Origin: Candidatus Thorarchaeota archaeon
GTDB taxonomy: Archaea; Asgardarchaeota; Thorarchaeia; Thorarchaeales; Thorarchaeaceae
Assembly (NCBI GenBank): GCA_029855935.1
Contig: JAGSHN010000012.1
Span: forward strand, 64,001 to 128,000
DNA length: 64,000 nt
Direction of reading: 5' to 3'
In this document: positions 36,415 to 42,855 of the stretch, in pieces
Layout: every line of letters begins with the position of its first letter
How positions within the stretch are numbered: position 1 is the first letter of the stretch
The notes under the pieces: generated by a model
Database searches by the model: none
What the model was told of the DNA's origin: nothing
Seen by the model: only the letters and a program-made list of their open reading frames with translations
Translations under genes and position numbers: made by a program

Positions 36415-37260
36415 TCAGGATGGCCTTGCTGTGCTTCGGGTATAGTAGTACAGGTACTCCTGAGCATATCCTGCGTATCGGCCGAAGTACTCCCTCGCAG
36501 CCTTGGACTTTTTGGCGTACGACTTGCCGCTCTCAGTGAAGATGTCATAGTGTCTCTGAATCACGCGTTCAATCCACACGTCTATCGGAAATGACTCCAA
36601 GAATCCGAGGGAGAAGAGGCATACACAGTCGGCGACCTTATCGCCCACACCGTGCAACGTCTTGAGTTCGTGATGCGCCTCCTCGTAGCTCAGTCGTCTG
36701 AGTTTGCGTTCGGTAACAAGGCCCTCGTCAATCGCCTTGGCAGTACGGACTATGAACTCAGCACGCCAGTCCAGACCGAGTGACCGTAGGTCGTTCACGT
36801 CGGCCCTTGCGAGAACATCGGGACCGGGCATACCGTGATACCTCTGGCCGTGAAACTCGTATGCCGGGCCGTACCCCTCCCTGATCCTCTGAGCAACTCT
36901 CTGGATGGATGGTATGTTGTTCCGTATCGAACAGATAAAGGTCACCAGACAGGGGAAGAACGGATCGGAGACTATTCTCAGACCGGGTGCGAACGCGATT
37001 GCCTCTCTCATCACATCGTCCTTAGCAATCTCTGTCTGGATGTCTCGCAACGGGTCATCGAGCCTGAACAGTCTTCTCACACTAGCAGCGTCGACCTCTT
37101 CCGAGGCCTCATAGAGGAGCCTGTCGCCCTGCTGTTCGACATATATCACCTGTCCCAGATCCGTGCAGAGATACCCATCTCCGTGGCGTGTCCAGCAGAA
37201 GGTCTGGCCACACTCAAGGGTGTCGCGCAGGCTGAAGTCCCTCACCGTAATCTCCTGCAT
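36415..37260 (-). CDS. 8-oxoguanine DNA glycosylase (OGG1/OGG_N, HhH-GPD)
   Basis: FSLRDTLECGQTF, GLRI, GVGDKVADCVCLFSL, FPIDVW, YAGYAQEYLY; start 37260 or 37284. Confidence 0.92.
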   Translation of the reverse strand: MQEITVRDFSLRDTLECGQTFCWTRHGDGYLCTDLGQVIYVEQQGDRLLYEASEEVDAASVRRLFRLDDPLRDIQTEIAKDDVMREAIAFAPGLRIVSDPFFPCLVTFICSIRNNIPSIQRVAQRIREGYGPAYEFHGQRYHGMPGPDVLARADVNDLRSLGLDWRAEFIVRTAKAIDEGLVTERKLRRLSYEEAHHELKTLHGVGDKVADCVCLFSLGFLESFPIDVWIERVIQRHYDIFTESGKSYAKKSKAAREYFGRYAGYAQEYLYYYTRSTARPS

Positions 37261-37298
37261 AGCCCCCACTGCTCCTCCTGACAAGGCTATCTCTACTA

Positions 37299-39392
37299 CT
37301 ACTCTCCTGCGCTCTCGTCAACACCCCGTGAGCCTCTGAGGTAGGCCCTGCGCTTCAGATAGACGAACACAGCGAGCAGTGCCACGATAGTTGTCACGGA
37401 AACGGGTGCGACACTGTCCACCCAGTGCCTGTGGGGATTCCAGTCCCAGTTGTCAGGTATGAGGTCGCCATCGGTGTCGGTGCTGGTGGGCGACATATAG
37501 TGATACACTTCGAATGCGTCAGTCCATCCATCGCCGTCCGTGTCCACAGAGAGAGGGTTGATGTGGTTGAGAATCTCGAACAGGTCGTCGAGCCCATCAC
37601 CGTCAGTATCGATCGATGTCGCGTTCAGTCCCGTGGCTATCTCAAAGGCGTCATCGAGTCCGTCGCCATCGGTGTCAGCAGATAGAGGATTGGAGTGGTA
37701 GACGTAGATCTCCTCATAGTCACTGATACCATCACCATCGGTGTCCGTCAGTATTGGTGATGTGCCGAGTGCTGCCTCCTCGCCATCGGTGATGTTGTCT
37801 CCGTCAGAGTCCTGCAGCACCAGACTTGACCCCCACTTGTATTCATCCGAGTCGAGGGCACCATCGTGGTCCGAGTCCCTCTCACGTGGGTCGCTGCCAA
37901 TCGCTATCTCAAAGTCGTCCTCGAGTCCGTCCGCGTCAGAATCAAGCCGGTAGGGATCGAGCCCATTGTCCACCTCATAGGTGTCACTGAGTCCGTCCCC
38001 GTCCGCATCATCGAGGCACGTGACATTGGTGTGCGCCACAATCTCATCCGGCCCGAGGTTACTGATGACAAGTCTGTACTGGCCCGGCGAGTTGGCGAGG
38101 TACTTGAGATTGATGAGGCCGTCGTTCTCTGTTCTCTCGTAGACAGTCCTGCCCGTCGATACACTGACAATCCTTGCATAGACTGTTGCATTGTTCTGCC
38201 ACGTCACAGTCGCATTGACAAAGCCATCAACGCTCACAACGAATCCGAGATCCGCTGTGCCGTTCACGGGGAGTACGCGTGACCTCCAGAAGGATAGGAT
38301 ATCACCATCACCTGCTCTTCCGAGCAGCATAATGGCACCTGCTGCGGAGGCCACGGCCTCTCTTGCCTTTACAAAACTGTAGTAGAGCTCGTCCGCATCG
38401 TCGTCTATGCCCCCGCTGAGGCTGTCATAGAAGTATCCCTGAGAGGCATAGACGGCCGAGGTATTCCTGTTCCAGAGTTCCCAAGCGAGAGAGTGTTCCG
38501 AATATCCCCTGTCCATCGCGCTGTGCACCATTCCTGCACCGACATCGGCCGACATGACAATCATGAGGTCAGGAATCCAGCTGGTCCTCTGATAGATGTT
38601 GGACTCCAAGCGCGACCTGAGAAGCACCTGAGTACCGTATGGGAACTGGCTCCTGTGAAAGAGCAACCGGTCATACGATATCGCCGTCAGTATCTCCGTC
38701 CCCTGCCCGTCGAGCATCTGGACAAACTCCGCTGCTCCCGGGTCGTGGTCATAACCTGCCCTACCCGTACTGCTGAGGACATAATAGACATCGCAATGCA
38801 GTGAGAGATTGACCAGAATCCTTGCGGTCTCCAACACTGCTGCGACGCTGACTCCAACGTCGTTAGCACCAGGTGTATCATACCGACTGTCGAGTATACC
38901 TGTGACAAGGACCGCTGGTCGCGGCGACGGCCCGATCCCGGTCTGTACTGCGTATAGTGTCTGGTACTGGCCCGTGGTCCCGAACCAGAGTCTACCTTGG
39001 GTGAGGGCATTGAGCGTCGTGTTGACCCATTGTTGGGCCGCTGAGAGCATTGTTGATGGCCTGTCATGCTTGATGTCCCAGGTCCGTGACCCGTACGTCG
39101 AGGCGAGGGTATCGGTGAGATCGTGCATGGAGGTTTCCGAGGAGACATTCCAGATATCCTCCCACAGTGCTGTCACGTTGATGAACGATGCTCCTGCACC
39201 GGCAAGGTGTCCTGTCCACGCTTTCTGTGGGCTCCCCTTTGTATCGGTCATATAGTATCGATCTACATTCTTTGTGGTGTTTCCGAGCGACATCGCCATA
39301 GTCGCACCCAGAATGGTGACAAGTACAACAGCGACTACGACTATGTGATGGGGACGCGAAACAACTTGTCGTGAATCGTACTCGTCGCGCAA
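37299..39392 (-). CDS. Surface protein: degenerate M28-like head, beta domain, 9 Ca-binding DxDxD repeats, C-terminal TM
   Basis: N-terminal hydrophobic segment, VTGILDS...PGANDVGVSVAAVLETAR, 22-aa DTDGDG repeats, TM followed by KRR. Confidence 0.85.
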   Translation of the reverse strand: MRDEYDSRQVVSRPHHIVVVAVVLVTILGATMAMSLGNTTKNVDRYYMTDTKGSPQKAWTGHLAGAGASFINVTALWEDIWNVSSETSMHDLTDTLASTYGSRTWDIKHDRPSTMLSAAQQWVNTTLNALTQGRLWFGTTGQYQTLYAVQTGIGPSPRPAVLVTGILDSRYDTPGANDVGVSVAAVLETARILVNLSLHCDVYYVLSSTGRAGYDHDPGAAEFVQMLDGQGTEILTAISYDRLLFHRSQFPYGTQVLLRSRLESNIYQRTSWIPDLMIVMSADVGAGMVHSAMDRGYSEHSLAWELWNRNTSAVYASQGYFYDSLSGGIDDDADELYYSFVKAREAVASAAGAIMLLGRAGDGDILSFWRSRVLPVNGTADLGFVVSVDGFVNATVTWQNNATVYARIVSVSTGRTVYERTENDGLINLKYLANSPGQYRLVISNLGPDEIVAHTNVTCLDDADGDGLSDTYEVDNGLDPYRLDSDADGLEDDFEIAIGSDPRERDSDHDGALDSDEYKWGSSLVLQDSDGDNITDGEEAALGTSPILTDTDGDGISDYEEIYVYHSNPLSADTDGDGLDDAFEIATGLNATSIDTDGDGLDDLFEILNHINPLSVDTDGDGWTDAFEVYHYMSPTSTDTDGDLIPDNWDWNPHRHWVDSVAPVSVTTIVALLAVFVYLKRRAYLRGSRGVDESAGE
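37434..38009 (-). repeat. Nine ~22-aa TSP3-like Ca-binding repeats
   Basis: DxDxDxxxDxxE motif at 22-23 aa period, counted manually. Confidence 0.9.
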
Positions 39393-39411
39393 CTGTCTGT
39401 CCTCCCGCGGC

Positions 39412-41400
39412 TCATCCTCCTCGATTGTACCGTATCTTCTTCACTGCCAGCCAGATGCCCACCAGCACGGTGACACCGAGCGCGACCCAGGTCGGTATCT
39501 CCTGTGTCCACGGTATCTTTGGATCCCAGTCCTCTCCGTCAGGTATGGAGTCCCCATCAGTATCGTTGTTGAAGGGCAGTAGTCCATTCTCAACCTCATA
39601 CAGGTCGGTGAGACCATCCCCGTCGGTGTCATTTGACAGGGGGTCGAGACCATTGAGCACCTCGAACAGATCTGTCAGGCCGTCACCATCCGTGTCCGCC
39701 ACGAGGGCACTTGTGTTGTGCTCAATCTCCAAGGAGTCTATGAGACCATCCCCGTCGGTGTCATCATTTAGCGGGTCGAGGCCCATCTCAAGCTCTGTGG
39801 CATCGTCGACTCCATCGCCGTCGGTGTCGGTTGACAATGGGCTGAGACCATGCTCTATCTCAAAGCCATCCTTGAGAGAGTCCCCATCGGTGTCGACCAA
39901 CCACGGATTAGACCCTATCATCACCTCGACGTAGTCGGAGGCACCATCCCCGTCCGTGTCTGGTGACCGTGGGTTCGTGCGGAGTTCGTATTCTTGATCA
40001 TCGGTCAGATTGTCGGCGTCGGTGTCGGGTGAGATGGCATCGGACTTGAACAGGTACTCCGTTCCGTCATCGAGGCTGTCCATGTCAAAATCGTGATATT
40101 GCGAGAACGAGTAGTCTACTATTGCGCTGGCGTTCCCCGTATTAGTCACCTGAAACGTATAGATGCCGGGTGCCTGAATATCTGCTGTGATGACGAGGCT
40201 GCCGCTGTTGGATGTGCCCTGTCCTATGTCATTCCCCTGGGGATCCACTATGTGTGCTGCAAGCTGCGTCCCGCTCGTCCATCCCAAGGCGAGTGTCAAC
40301 CGCGAGACACCTGTAAGCGGCATTGTTCCCGCCTCGGTGTAGTTAGTCCCAATTGACATCTGGCCCGCGAACGCAATCTCCCTCCCTGTTCCAAAGTTAC
40401 CTAGCATCCATGTCAGGGAGGCGACGAGGCCCACCGCCTCTGCTGCCTGCGCGTAGTCGTATCTCGCGTTGTTCCAGTTGTCGTCATCCGTCGGGACATA
40501 GTAGTAAGGCTGGCTCAATACGAAGCTCGGGACACCCGCATTGGTGCCATCATACGCACCAGTACGTGTCCATCCTCCTGCTGGTGCTGGACTCTTTGTC
40601 GTGAATCTTGCACCCGCGAGATAGGAGGCCCGTACGGCCACCTCGCCCATGAAGTCCACATTCTGAAAGCCCGAGTCGTGATAGTTCGATACAAAGAGCA
40701 GTCCAGCCGGGGAGCTCGCCTCATGATGCAGGAGTGTCGAAAACCAGAAGATTGCAGCAGGCCGTCTTCCCTCATCAATCAGCTGGTTCATGAACGTCCG
40801 GAGTCCCAGATTCCCACTACTCCCTGAACCATAGCCTGTGGTGATGGTGTTGGTGAGAACAAACATCACATCGTTTGTCAGCGGATATTGATAGAGTAAT
40901 CTGGCTGTCTCGACGACGGCTGCCGCTGAGGCGCCGAAACCATTTGCTCCAGCAGTGTATCTCGATGCAATTGTACCGGCAATGATGATTGGTGCGCGAT
41001 TGTCGGTTGTCCCGTGCAGGACACCGACCAGTGTCTCCTCCACCGTTTCTCTGTCAAAAGCGATATGATTGTCTGTGGCATTTCTCATTGCCTCATCGAT
41101 ATACTCCCACGCGCCCGCGAGCGGGTCTGATGGCTTCCGGTCGAGAGGATACCACACTCTCTGAGGATACAGCTCGGAGAGGTCCTTCACGATAGTCCTG
41201 ATCCGGTCGACACTCACGTCGTCAAATATGCTCTTCCAGACATTGTTGACCTTGGTCGTGGCACTAACCACAGAGTGCCGATACGGCACGGCGCGTTGTG
41301 TGTTCAGCTCTGTGACCACACCAGCCTGATGAAAAATGAAACCAACTCCGAGAATCAGTAGTAGTCCCAATGCGAGGACCGCGCCGTTCCGAGGGCTCAT
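39412..41400 (-). CDS. Paralogous surface protein: degenerate M28-like head, PPC-like domain, 9 DxDxD repeats, C-terminal TM
   Basis: Signal/anchor, IIAGTIAS...[28 protein letters not shown], 22-aa repeats, TM followed by KKIR. Confidence 0.85.
39520..40092 (-). repeat. Nine 22-aa TSP3-like Ca-binding repeats
   Basis: DTDGDGLxDxxE units, counted manually. Confidence 0.9.
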
Positions 41401-41473
41401 ACCAGCGACCCCCCCGTGTGCGCTTGATTAAGCTTTTGAAGTACGCCATCCGAGATGCCCACCGCGAGAGGAA

Positions 41474-41995
41474 TCACCGCAGCTCCTCAGCGTGCTCCAG
41501 TATCAGATTAGCCACAAGTTCTGTGTTGTCAGGTGAGACCACTCTCCACCCCTCCAGCCTCTCGTCCTCTGCTACATCTTCGTCGCAGACTATGGCCACA
41601 ATTCTCTTCACTGCGGGCGGTGGAGGAACTGCCTCCCCCCTGATGCACCACAGACGAGGTATCGGCTCTCTCTTCATCCCCTCAATGATCACTATATCGG
41701 CGTCGAGACGCTCCACAATCTCCCTGAGCGGCAGCCTCTGCCTCCATCTCATCGTTGTGACGCTTGGGCCAACCAGTGCAGTGCCACTGGCACCTGCCTC
41801 CCACAGTCTCCTGGTGTCAGTTCCTGCCTGCGCCAAGACATCCTCGTTGCTGCTCTTCACAGCCGCTACGCGAACACCTCTCCTCATCAGCTCAGGTATC
41901 ACTCTCTCCAGCAGTGTGGTCTTGCCGGATCCCGAGAGGCCGGATATTGCAAACACCCGTTGCGATGACGAGTTCCGAATGGTCCTGTGGGTCAT
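41474..41995 (-). CDS. mobB: Molybdopterin-guanine dinucleotide biosynthesis protein B
   Basis: [39 protein letters not shown]. Confidence 0.88.
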   Translation of the reverse strand: MTHRTIRNSSSQRVFAISGLSGSGKTTLLERVIPELMRRGVRVAAVKSSNEDVLAQAGTDTRRLWEAGASGTALVGPSVTTMRWRQRLPLREIVERLDADIVIIEGMKREPIPRLWCIRGEAVPPPPAVKRIVAIVCDEDVAEDERLEGWRVVSPDNTELVANLILEHAEELR

Positions 41996-42072
41996 ACCAC
42001 CAGCTCGCGGTGTTGCTCCAGTAGGAACCTTAAAAATCGGTTTATCTTGGTCACAGGGCGGAGAGAGCTCCT

Positions 42073-42855
42073 TTGGCCAATGACATTGACAACGACATTG
42101 CGGTTCTGTGTCAGGATGTTCATCGAGACTTTCAGGACGGCTCACGAGTGATTCGTGTCCTGCGGGGGACCGACTTGGAGGTCCGAAAGGGTGAGTTCGT
42201 TGCCATAGTGGGCGCCTCGGGCTCCGGAAAGACTACTCTCCTCAATCTCATTGGCGGACTGGACCGGCCGACAAGCGGGAAGATATTCGTCGATGGCATC
42301 GAGATAACGGCGCTGGACGACGAAGAGATGGCTGAGATGCGGCGCAACAAGATTGGGATCCTGTTTCAGGATCAGTACCTGCTGCCTGTCTTCACAGCGC
42401 TCGAGAACGTCCAGGTGCCGATGCTGTTGAACGAGGTGAGGGCCAAGGAGCGAGAGCGACGTGCTATGGAGCTACTCAAGGCCGTCGGTGTCGACCACCG
42501 TGCGCACCATATGCCTCACGAGCTCTCCGGCGGAATGCGGTCAAGAGTCGCTCTCGCGCGTGCATTGGCAAACGATCCTGCTATTCTTCTCTGCGATGAG
42601 CCGACTGGCGACCTCGACCACAAGACCGGGGGCGAGATAATCCGGCTGATGCGTGACCTAGCCAAGAAACACAACCGCGCAGTCCTTGTCGTCACCCACG
42701 ACCCGGAGGTGGCAAGGATGGCGGACCGCATCCTCCTACTTCGTGATGGCAAGCTTGTGGAGGAGCTAGTGAGCCGTTTCTTCAAGCCCAGTGGCGTCGA
42801 TGTCACCGTAGCTCGCGACCCGGACTCTAGGAGTTCCGCACCAACAGAGGGGTGA
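42073..42855 (+). CDS. LolD/MacB-type ABC ATPase
   Basis: GASGSGKT, LSGGMRSR, CDEPTGDLD, VTHD. Confidence 0.95.
   Translation: MANDIDNDIAVLCQDVHRDFQDGSRVIRVLRGTDLEVRKGEFVAIVGASGSGKTTLLNLIGGLDRPTSGKIFVDGIEITALDDEEMAEMRRNKIGILFQDQYLLPVFTALENVQVPMLLNEVRAKERERRAMELLKAVGVDHRAHHMPHELSGGMRSRVALARALANDPAILLCDEPTGDLDHKTGGEIIRLMRDLAKKHNRAVLVVTHDPEVARMADRILLLRDGKLVEELVSRFFKPSGVDVTVARDPDSRSSAPTEG

Follow-up and report, generated by a model that had tools for sequence, protein, structure and literature searches.

The 64,000-nucleotide stretch of Candidatus Thorarchaeota archaeon analysed here (assembly GCA_029855935.1, contig JAGSHN010000012.1; hereafter the window, in whose positions the coordinates of Table 1 are given) carries on its reverse strand two adjacent genes for membrane-anchored proteins with M28-like heads and calcium-loop stalks. 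We call the upstream gene B (protein P0002, 662 residues, ATG start) and the downstream gene A (protein P0001, 697 residues, TTG start). They stand in the order MobB-B-A-OGG, all on the same strand, with gaps of 73, 19 and 14 nucleotides, the 19 nucleotides separating the stop of B from the start of A. The two proteins aligned end to end (32% identity across 621 residues, E 6e-75) and are paralogues; orthologues of both were found in Thorarchaeota, where A and B form separate sequence clades.

Each protein consists of an N-terminal hydrophobic segment, an M28-like head, a beta domain, nine repeats, a transmembrane (TM) helix and a basic tail. This order had been given, correctly for both genes, in a first-pass annotation made from the DNA letters alone; the motifs that it quoted (GILDS/GTIAS, GANDV/GANGF and AAVxETAR) are also present as written.

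Table 1. Features of the B-A gene pair and their positions in the window (TM, transmembrane; AF2, AlphaFold2)
Feature	Position	Strand	Basis or remark
MobB-B-A-OGG gene row	36415-42145	-	gene order
Gene B (P0002)	39412-41400	-	open reading frame, translation; upstream pair member, predicted fully dead M28-fold surface protein
B N-terminal hydrophobic segment (residues 6-24)	41329-41385	-	hydropathy 2.35; putative signal peptide or signal anchor
B M28-fold head (residues 48-339)	40384-41259	-	AF2, VIA-align, metal-site map
B beta-sandwich domain (residues 342-432)	40105-40377	-	eight strands, AF2 model
B stalk, nine TSP3/EF-hand-like loops (residues 437-634)	39499-40092	-	motif starts 437 to 613, spacing 22 throughout
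B C-terminal TM helix (residues 635-653) and basic tail KKIRYNRGG with K-x3-Y	39415-39498	-	hydropathy, motif
B K-x3-Y tail	39415-39441	-	motif
Gene A (P0001)	37299-39392	-	open reading frame, translation; downstream pair member, partly degenerate M28 fold
A N-terminal hydrophobic segment (residues 17-35)	39288-39344	-	hydropathy 2.55; internal membrane segment in fused forms
A M28-fold head (residues 70-363)	38304-39185	-	AF2, Foldseek, VIA-align, Pfam, metal-site map
A beta-sandwich domain (residues 366-457), conserved Y418-x-R-x-E-x-D424	38022-38297	-	AF2 strands, conservation
A Y-x-R-x-E-x-D motif (residues 418-424)	~38130-38150	-	conservation
A stalk, nine TSP3/EF-hand-like loops (residues 462-660)	37413-38009	-	spacing 22, one of 23
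A C-terminal TM helix (residues 661-679) and basic tail LKRRAYLRG... with K-x3-Y	37302-37412	-	hydropathy, motif
A K-x3-Y tail	37302-37355	-	motif

AlphaFold2 (AF2) models built from a 95-row alignment had a predicted local distance difference test score (pLDDT) of 96.8 for the A head and 94.6 for the B head. Foldseek placed the A head with Legionella LapA/LapB and with the Vibrio/Aeromonas aminopeptidase (AAP) at E 5e-14 to 4e-13. VIA-align gave the A head Z scores of 31-32.5 against 2ek8, 6hc6, 1amp and 6ica, with a root-mean-square deviation of 2.1-2.7 Å over 255-271 residues; for the B head, Z was ~30 with 2.2-2.6 Å over 250-267 residues against these structures, and 30.3 with 2.5-2.6 Å over 252-267 residues against 2ek8 and 1amp. 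The transferrin receptor (TfR) came next in VIA-align with Z ~27-28. In both AF2 models an eight-strand beta module follows the head.

At the level of single sequences the fold was hard to see. The Pfam M28 model (PF04389) matched only residues 158-195 of A (23.5 bits, cut-off 21.3); the Pfam scan of B alone gave no M28 match, and phmmer searches of the PDB with the single sequence of either head gave no match. A profile of 16 A/B heads did find 1amp and 2ek8 in the PDB (E 2e-5, profile positions 21-236). By structure and by profile, both heads are matched best by bacterial M28 leucyl aminopeptidases (AAP 1AMP, Legionella LapA 6ICA, Bacillus BSAP 6HC6 and Aneurinibacillus 2EK8), to which the heads are only 12-17% identical; unlike A and B, these are secreted, soluble, active di-zinc enzymes with neither a TSP3 stalk nor a TM anchor. 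As judged from modelled structures and profile together, both heads are of the M28 fold, as the first-pass annotation had proposed.

To follow the metal site we used the ligand numbering of AAP and a MAFFT alignment, with a canonical M28 protein of the same genome, P0019, as reference (motifs GAHYD, GANDGASG, FDAEDSG, LLDMVG and DDHRPF). Two of the five metal ligands (H97, D117, E152, D179 and H256) are kept in A, D178 at the D117 position and D241 at the D179 position; none is kept in B. The replacements in A are I166 for H97, G210/R211 for E151/E152 and A303 for H256, the structural D99 being kept as D168. B has T143 for H97, A145 for D99, G154 for the bridging D117, I186/T187 for E151/E152, S221 for D179 and A282 for H256. 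The general base E151 is therefore G210 in A and I186 in B, and the HMMER alignment likewise showed no Glu-Glu pair in either.

The claim that no catalytic Glu-Glu pair follows was thus confirmed by the site map in both heads. The companion claim, that the zinc ligands are lost, stands in full for B, which has lost all five along with the catalytic Glu; it does not stand in full for A, which keeps the bridging Asp and a second Asp. In particular, GANDV in A had been read as a lost ligand, wrongly: GAND is the form seen in active relatives (GANDG in P0019, GANDD in the second-tier proteins introduced below), and the Asp after the Asn is the bridging ligand, kept as D178. The annotation had also named alternative zinc ligands that restore a site as speaking against its reading. 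No His or Cys is conserved at 90% or more in the head across 31 A and 31 B sequences, and a rebuilt zinc site is unlikely for that reason. Read from sequence, both A and B lack a competent co-catalytic site; the Arg found at the E152 position in most A proteins could pair with the two retained Asp residues.

Word-based searches returned about eight relatives each of A and B, all from Thorarchaeota, and an exhaustive profile search returned 786 proteins. The A/B clade was represented by ~20 cluster representatives (50% identity) at E < 1e-90. Proteins of a second tier, hereafter tier-2, followed at E 1e-40 to 1e-20 (~610-625 residues, e.g. P0038; annotated ‘M28 family peptidase’); they come from the same taxonomic family and have an identical part order (hydrophobic segment, M28 head, beta-sandwich, TSP3 loops, TM helix, basic tail) with shorter stalks, and most of them have the full H-D-D-EE-D-H site. 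The source names are those of Thorarchaeota; more distant stalked M28 proteins carried source names of Hodarchaeales and Odinarchaeota.

A further group, C, includes a paralogue from the window's own genome, P0018 (658 residues; contig C16, L004 799-2775, strand -; Pfam M28 53.6 bits), which is unpaired and of the same architecture. In C half of the site has degenerated, with Q in place of D117 and N-M in place of the Glu pair, beside a retained H, D, D179 and H256. The same genome has no intact stalked tier-2 copy. The reference protein P0019 (369 residues; contig C2, L005 1048-2157, strand +) is a canonical small M28/glutaminyl-cyclase-like protein with an N-terminal hydrophobic segment, a C-terminal TM helix and an RRRR tail, without a TSP3 stalk.

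In phylogenetic trees A and B together had 100% support (A 99, B 100), tier-2 formed a separate clade (99-100), and C was a weakly supported sister of A+B. As A and B nest beside archaeal M28 proteins with intact sites, catalysis appears to have been lost within Thorarchaeota. On these sequence data the best explanation is that a single duplication, within a Thorarchaeota/Asgard family of stalked, membrane-anchored M28 aminopeptidases with otherwise mostly intact sites, gave rise to the A/B pair.

Tier-2 genes of genus g11 also stand as tandem pairs (loci L038-L047; e.g. L038 7145-9016 and 8973-10853, L039 5990-7861 and 7865-9691). In these pairs the upstream copy is dead (D117 replaced by C, A or T; the Glu pair by L-F, L-L or L-H) and the downstream copy is fully intact. 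In some g11 genomes a third, degenerate type (D117 replaced by E, the Glu pair by R-Y) lies ~2.5 kb downstream; the dead copies have a conserved ...KDPW[NT] tail and the active copies tails of RRR type. One could suppose a single ancient duplication, with B orthologous to the dead and A to the active tier-2 copies. This was rejected by the tree, and an approximately unbiased (AU) test against a clade of B plus the dead tier-2 copies gave p 1.4e-5, the tested group having been named after the tree was seen. Since tree and test both reject the joint clade, tandem pairs with a dead member arose at least twice in the stalked M28 family. The two kinds of pair share the dead upstream member; they differ in genomic locus and clade, and in that one tier-2 member keeps the full H-D-D-EE-D-H site. 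By sequence, A/B is the case with both members dead, and tier-2 that of dead plus active.

The distribution was surveyed in 400 genomes of the phylum. Strong A/B matches were confined to the family to which the window belongs, where 13 of the 16 listed genera (g1-g16) had them. A and B matches lay 2.0-2.1 kb apart on one strand in ~25 genomes. Among 20 A/B loci fetched, 16 were paired, all of them MobB-B-A-OGG on the same strand with open reading frames abutting or overlapping, and this order and near-zero spacing are kept at only 36-54% identity. None of the 400 genomes has B without A.

Furthermore, B and A are fused into a single open frame of 1351-1372 residues in three species of genus g8 (G325, G328 and G329) and in P0020 (MDF1538913.1). 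At the junction the B TM helix runs into a basic linker of ~35 residues, corresponding to the N-terminal region of A, and then into the A hydrophobic segment, giving a consistent four-segment topology. Two such fusion loci, L023 7482-11597 (-) and L037 3072-7169 (-), have the linker ...KRRAY..(G/S)..YAKNNAFN..., which corresponds to the predicted cytoplasmic N-terminal region of A; in the sister species G324 and G327 of the same genus there are two separate genes. The functional coupling of A and B that had been suggested at first pass is thus backed by the conserved adjacency and by fusion in one genus.

Genomes without A/B show MobB and OGG as direct neighbours (e.g. L051 9321-10826); hence B-A sits inside a conserved MobB-OGG unit. 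A search of sequencing runs listed a single DNA data set, a hydrothermal vent metagenome that probably is the source sample, and no RNA data set.

By motif count each stalk has exactly nine D-x-D-x-D-G-x-x-D-x-x-E loops, the number first reported, with the last loop ending in DWNP in A and DWDP in B. Pfam TSP3_bac (PF18884) matched A at 70.9 bits and B at 52 bits (cut-off 25). Ligands at positions 1, 3, 5, 9 and 12 give such a loop the EF-hand pattern, and one Ca2+ per loop is expected. As no tandem repeat was found at DNA level, the nine units are old and diverged, with no recent expansion. A PDB sequence search with the stalk gave no relative. The NCBIfam models CglD (NF033765) and MtsD (NF047639) matched the repeats only, at 51-68 bits against equivalog cut-offs of 400-800; these Myxococcus proteins have the same 22-residue calcium-loop repeats, with heads and anchors unlike those of A and B.

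The stalks of A, of B and of A proteins that lack a B partner have nine loops and 195-199 residues up to the TM helix, without indels, in all genera fetched except g2. The unpaired paralogue C has nine loops too. Every tier-2 protein, singles included, has six loops (~148 residues, against ~197 in A/B). The sole length exception seen is genus g2, where a B with 13-14 loops stands beside a nine-loop A; this B (L019 8277-10601, strand +; open frame of 775 residues, representative P0036 of 760 residues) has a stalk of ~296 residues. Stalk length is a strong constraint, constant per clade in paired and unpaired members alike.

We considered equal stalks as a sign of pairing and rejected the idea: lone A and unpaired C keep nine loops, and the g2 pair is unequal. 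The argument of the first-pass annotation from equal stalk length to a heterodimer is therefore unsupported, stalk length following clade and not pairing. It had also asked whether pair and repeat counts co-vary: the pair is adjacent in ~25 genomes, and repeat number is independent of pairing. Nor did homologues turn out to be usually single with variable repeat number, a pattern that it had named as speaking against the pair; 16 of the 20 A/B loci fetched are paired, with the number fixed per clade.

Beyond the TM helix, a juxtamembrane K-x3-Y motif (LK[RHY][RK]xY in A, K[KR]xxY in B) was seen by eye in all 31 A and 31 B tails listed; under a looser regular expression it occurred in none of 21 tier-2 proteins, which also sets A/B apart from them. 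NCBIfam models of C-terminal sorting signals gave no match to the A/B tails at E <= 1. The proteins have 12 (A) and 7 (B) N-x-S/T sequons, which fits extracellular exposure. In the beta-sandwich, Y-x-R-x-E-x-D is conserved at 90% or more in the A clade and occurs in some B members as well; it is a candidate binding or calcium site.

Adjacency, fusion, the lack of any B without A and the shared K-x3-Y motif speak for A and B acting as a unit. Starting from the observed fold, ligand loss, repeats, topology elements, ancestry, adjacency and fusion, we lean, with modest confidence, towards a reading of A and B as a co-transcribed, non-catalytic surface pair that binds or scaffolds and is held on calcium-stiffened spacers. 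Both proteins would be exported via the N-terminal hydrophobic segment, displayed at the surface and anchored by the C-terminal TM helix; the nine TSP3 loops between head with beta-sandwich and anchor are predicted to bind about nine Ca2+ and would form a spacer of fixed length. After the duplication B would have lost the entire metal site, and A both His and both Glu, keeping two Asp and acquiring Arg at the E152 position. The two proteins would associate as one unit, probably in a 1:1 ratio, in binding or scaffolding with no cleavage. Binding may take place at what is left of the substrate pocket or at the beta-sandwich, and on the cytoplasmic side the K-x3-Y motif of both proteins may provide a common inner contact.

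Several points weigh against a non-catalytic, cooperating pair. In G387, G388 and G389 (genus g15, 96-99% complete) and in G333, A stands alone at the same locus and keeps all nine repeats of its stalk; from this, B appears dispensable and A able to work alone. The adjacency of A and B across one family may partly reflect descent, and the unrelated neighbours OGG, PriL and methyltransferase are equally syntenic. A metal might still be bound by the Asp pair retained in A. Without cleavage of the N-terminal segment, each protein would have a membrane anchor at either end, and its repeats would be a tether, not a stalk. Of the heterodimer first proposed, the coupling is supported by adjacency and fusion, and the pair is not obligatory, as the three near-complete genomes with A alone demonstrate.

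In the trees the lone A proteins branch inside the A clade; their lack of B is therefore a secondary loss. In G333 (genus g9; L032 7904-9757, strand -) no B lies between MobB and A, and an in-frame TGA interrupts the A match, leaving an open frame of 618 residues; this could reflect decay of the locus or a mistake in the assembly at the stop.

Some of these points feed a different explanation, a real possibility though in our view not a probable one: A and B would be independent, non-associating paralogues, adjacent because they were duplicated in place within a syntenic region, each acting as a surface binding or adhesion protein with a stalk set by envelope geometry. The lone A proteins, with all features kept, fit this well; so do the constancy of stalk length per clade regardless of pairing, the equal synteny of unrelated neighbours and the unequal g2 pair, and TSP3_bac repeats are typical of adhesion and cohesion proteins such as CglD and MtsD, weak as those NCBIfam matches are. 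Independence accounts poorly, however, for in-frame B-A fusions kept in several species of one genus, for B never occurring without A, for order and near-zero spacing conserved at such low identity and for a tail motif common to A and B.

One could also extend the binding or scaffolding pair to a Ca2+-dependent heteromeric surface receptor, in which two dead heads, kept at a set distance above the membrane, recognise a peptide or a protein as ligand, with K-x3-Y as the link to the cytoplasm; we offer this as speculation and think it rather improbable.

That A still acts as an enzyme or binds metal, with a changed chemistry, and that B is its dead regulatory partner, mirroring the tier-2 pairs, seems to us very unlikely. 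Retention of D168, D178 and D241 (the equivalents of D99, D117 and D179) is in its favour, as is the arrangement of a fully dead copy upstream and a less degenerate one downstream. Yet throughout the A clade I/V, A/V, G and R stand where the two His and the two Glu, general base included, would be; the head has no conserved His or Cys; and the A members P0023 and P0032 have lost D117 too, with Q or S in its place.

A divergent MacB/FtsX-type block, ABC-FtsX-FtsX-ABC, stands beside MobB-B-A in all 20 A/B loci fetched, and one might see in A and B the outer parts of a ‘2+2+2’ envelope machine with these permeases and ABC ATPases. We hold this to be extremely unlikely. G355 (genus g11), which has no A/B, keeps the same transporter block together with MobB-OGG and PriL-methyltransferase; genus g12 keeps MobB-OGG-PriL without A/B and without an orthologous adjacent transporter block; and genomes with A only keep the transporter, while the housekeeping neighbours are equally syntenic. 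From the gene orders in G355 and g12, the transporter block is backbone synteny into which B-A was inserted or from which it was lost, and gives no evidence of joint function.

The first-pass annotation had called A and B analogous or possibly related to the eukaryotic proteins nicalin and nicastrin. In an Asgard host, an M28-like ectodomain that is non-catalytic, membrane-anchored and followed by a single C-terminal TM helix invites the idea of archaeal ancestors or xenologues forming a comparable intramembrane complex, and a broad profile does touch nicalin (E 2e-10, 43 bits); we give it next to no credence, because that match covers 54 residues of the universal M28 core against ~280 for AAP and 2ek8 (E 1e-42, 148-150 bits), the A/B-only profile lists neither nicalin nor nicastrin up to E 10, only aminopeptidases being significant in the PDB, and A/B are confined to one family, next to archaeal M28 clades with intact sites. 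Kinship is thus unsupported.

With the broad profile TfR matched at E 1e-13, and nicastrin was not among the best 60 matches. Neither nicalin nor nicastrin was among the 50 rows listed by Foldseek or VIA-align, an absence that is no exclusion. Presenilin, Aph-1 and TMEM147 (DUF2053) models (PF01080, PF06105 and PF09767) had no match in the window's own genome, which is 97.3% complete, with controls silent for two of the three families. Literature searches on Asgard nicastrin, Thorarchaeota thrombospondin, M28 pseudopeptidases and bacterial TSP3 found nothing relevant.

What A and B share with TfR1, nicalin and nicastrin is a single-pass anchor bearing an M28-like ectodomain whose metal site does not work; the eukaryotic proteins use it for binding or scaffolding, the role proposed for the archaeal pair. 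The eukaryotic proteins have no calcium-repeat stalk, unlike A and B, and lost catalysis independently; TfR also has PA and helical dimerisation domains, absent in A and B. On the sequence relationships, the likeness to nicalin and nicastrin is analogy, catalysis having been lost convergently in membrane-anchored proteins of the M28 fold.

The tempting link to eukaryote origins through nicalin and nicastrin is thereby removed as unsupported. What the B-A locus suggests in its place is that an Asgard lineage put a membrane-anchored M28 fold to non-catalytic use, independently of TfR, nicalin and nicastrin; if the receptor reading were true, A/B would be an independently evolved Asgard counterpart of these eukaryotic dead-M28 receptors and scaffolds. 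The practical value of the finding is moderate. For the biology of the family, A/B, tier-2 and C offer a natural series in which the origin of pseudoenzymes and the control of stalk length in an archaeal envelope may be followed.

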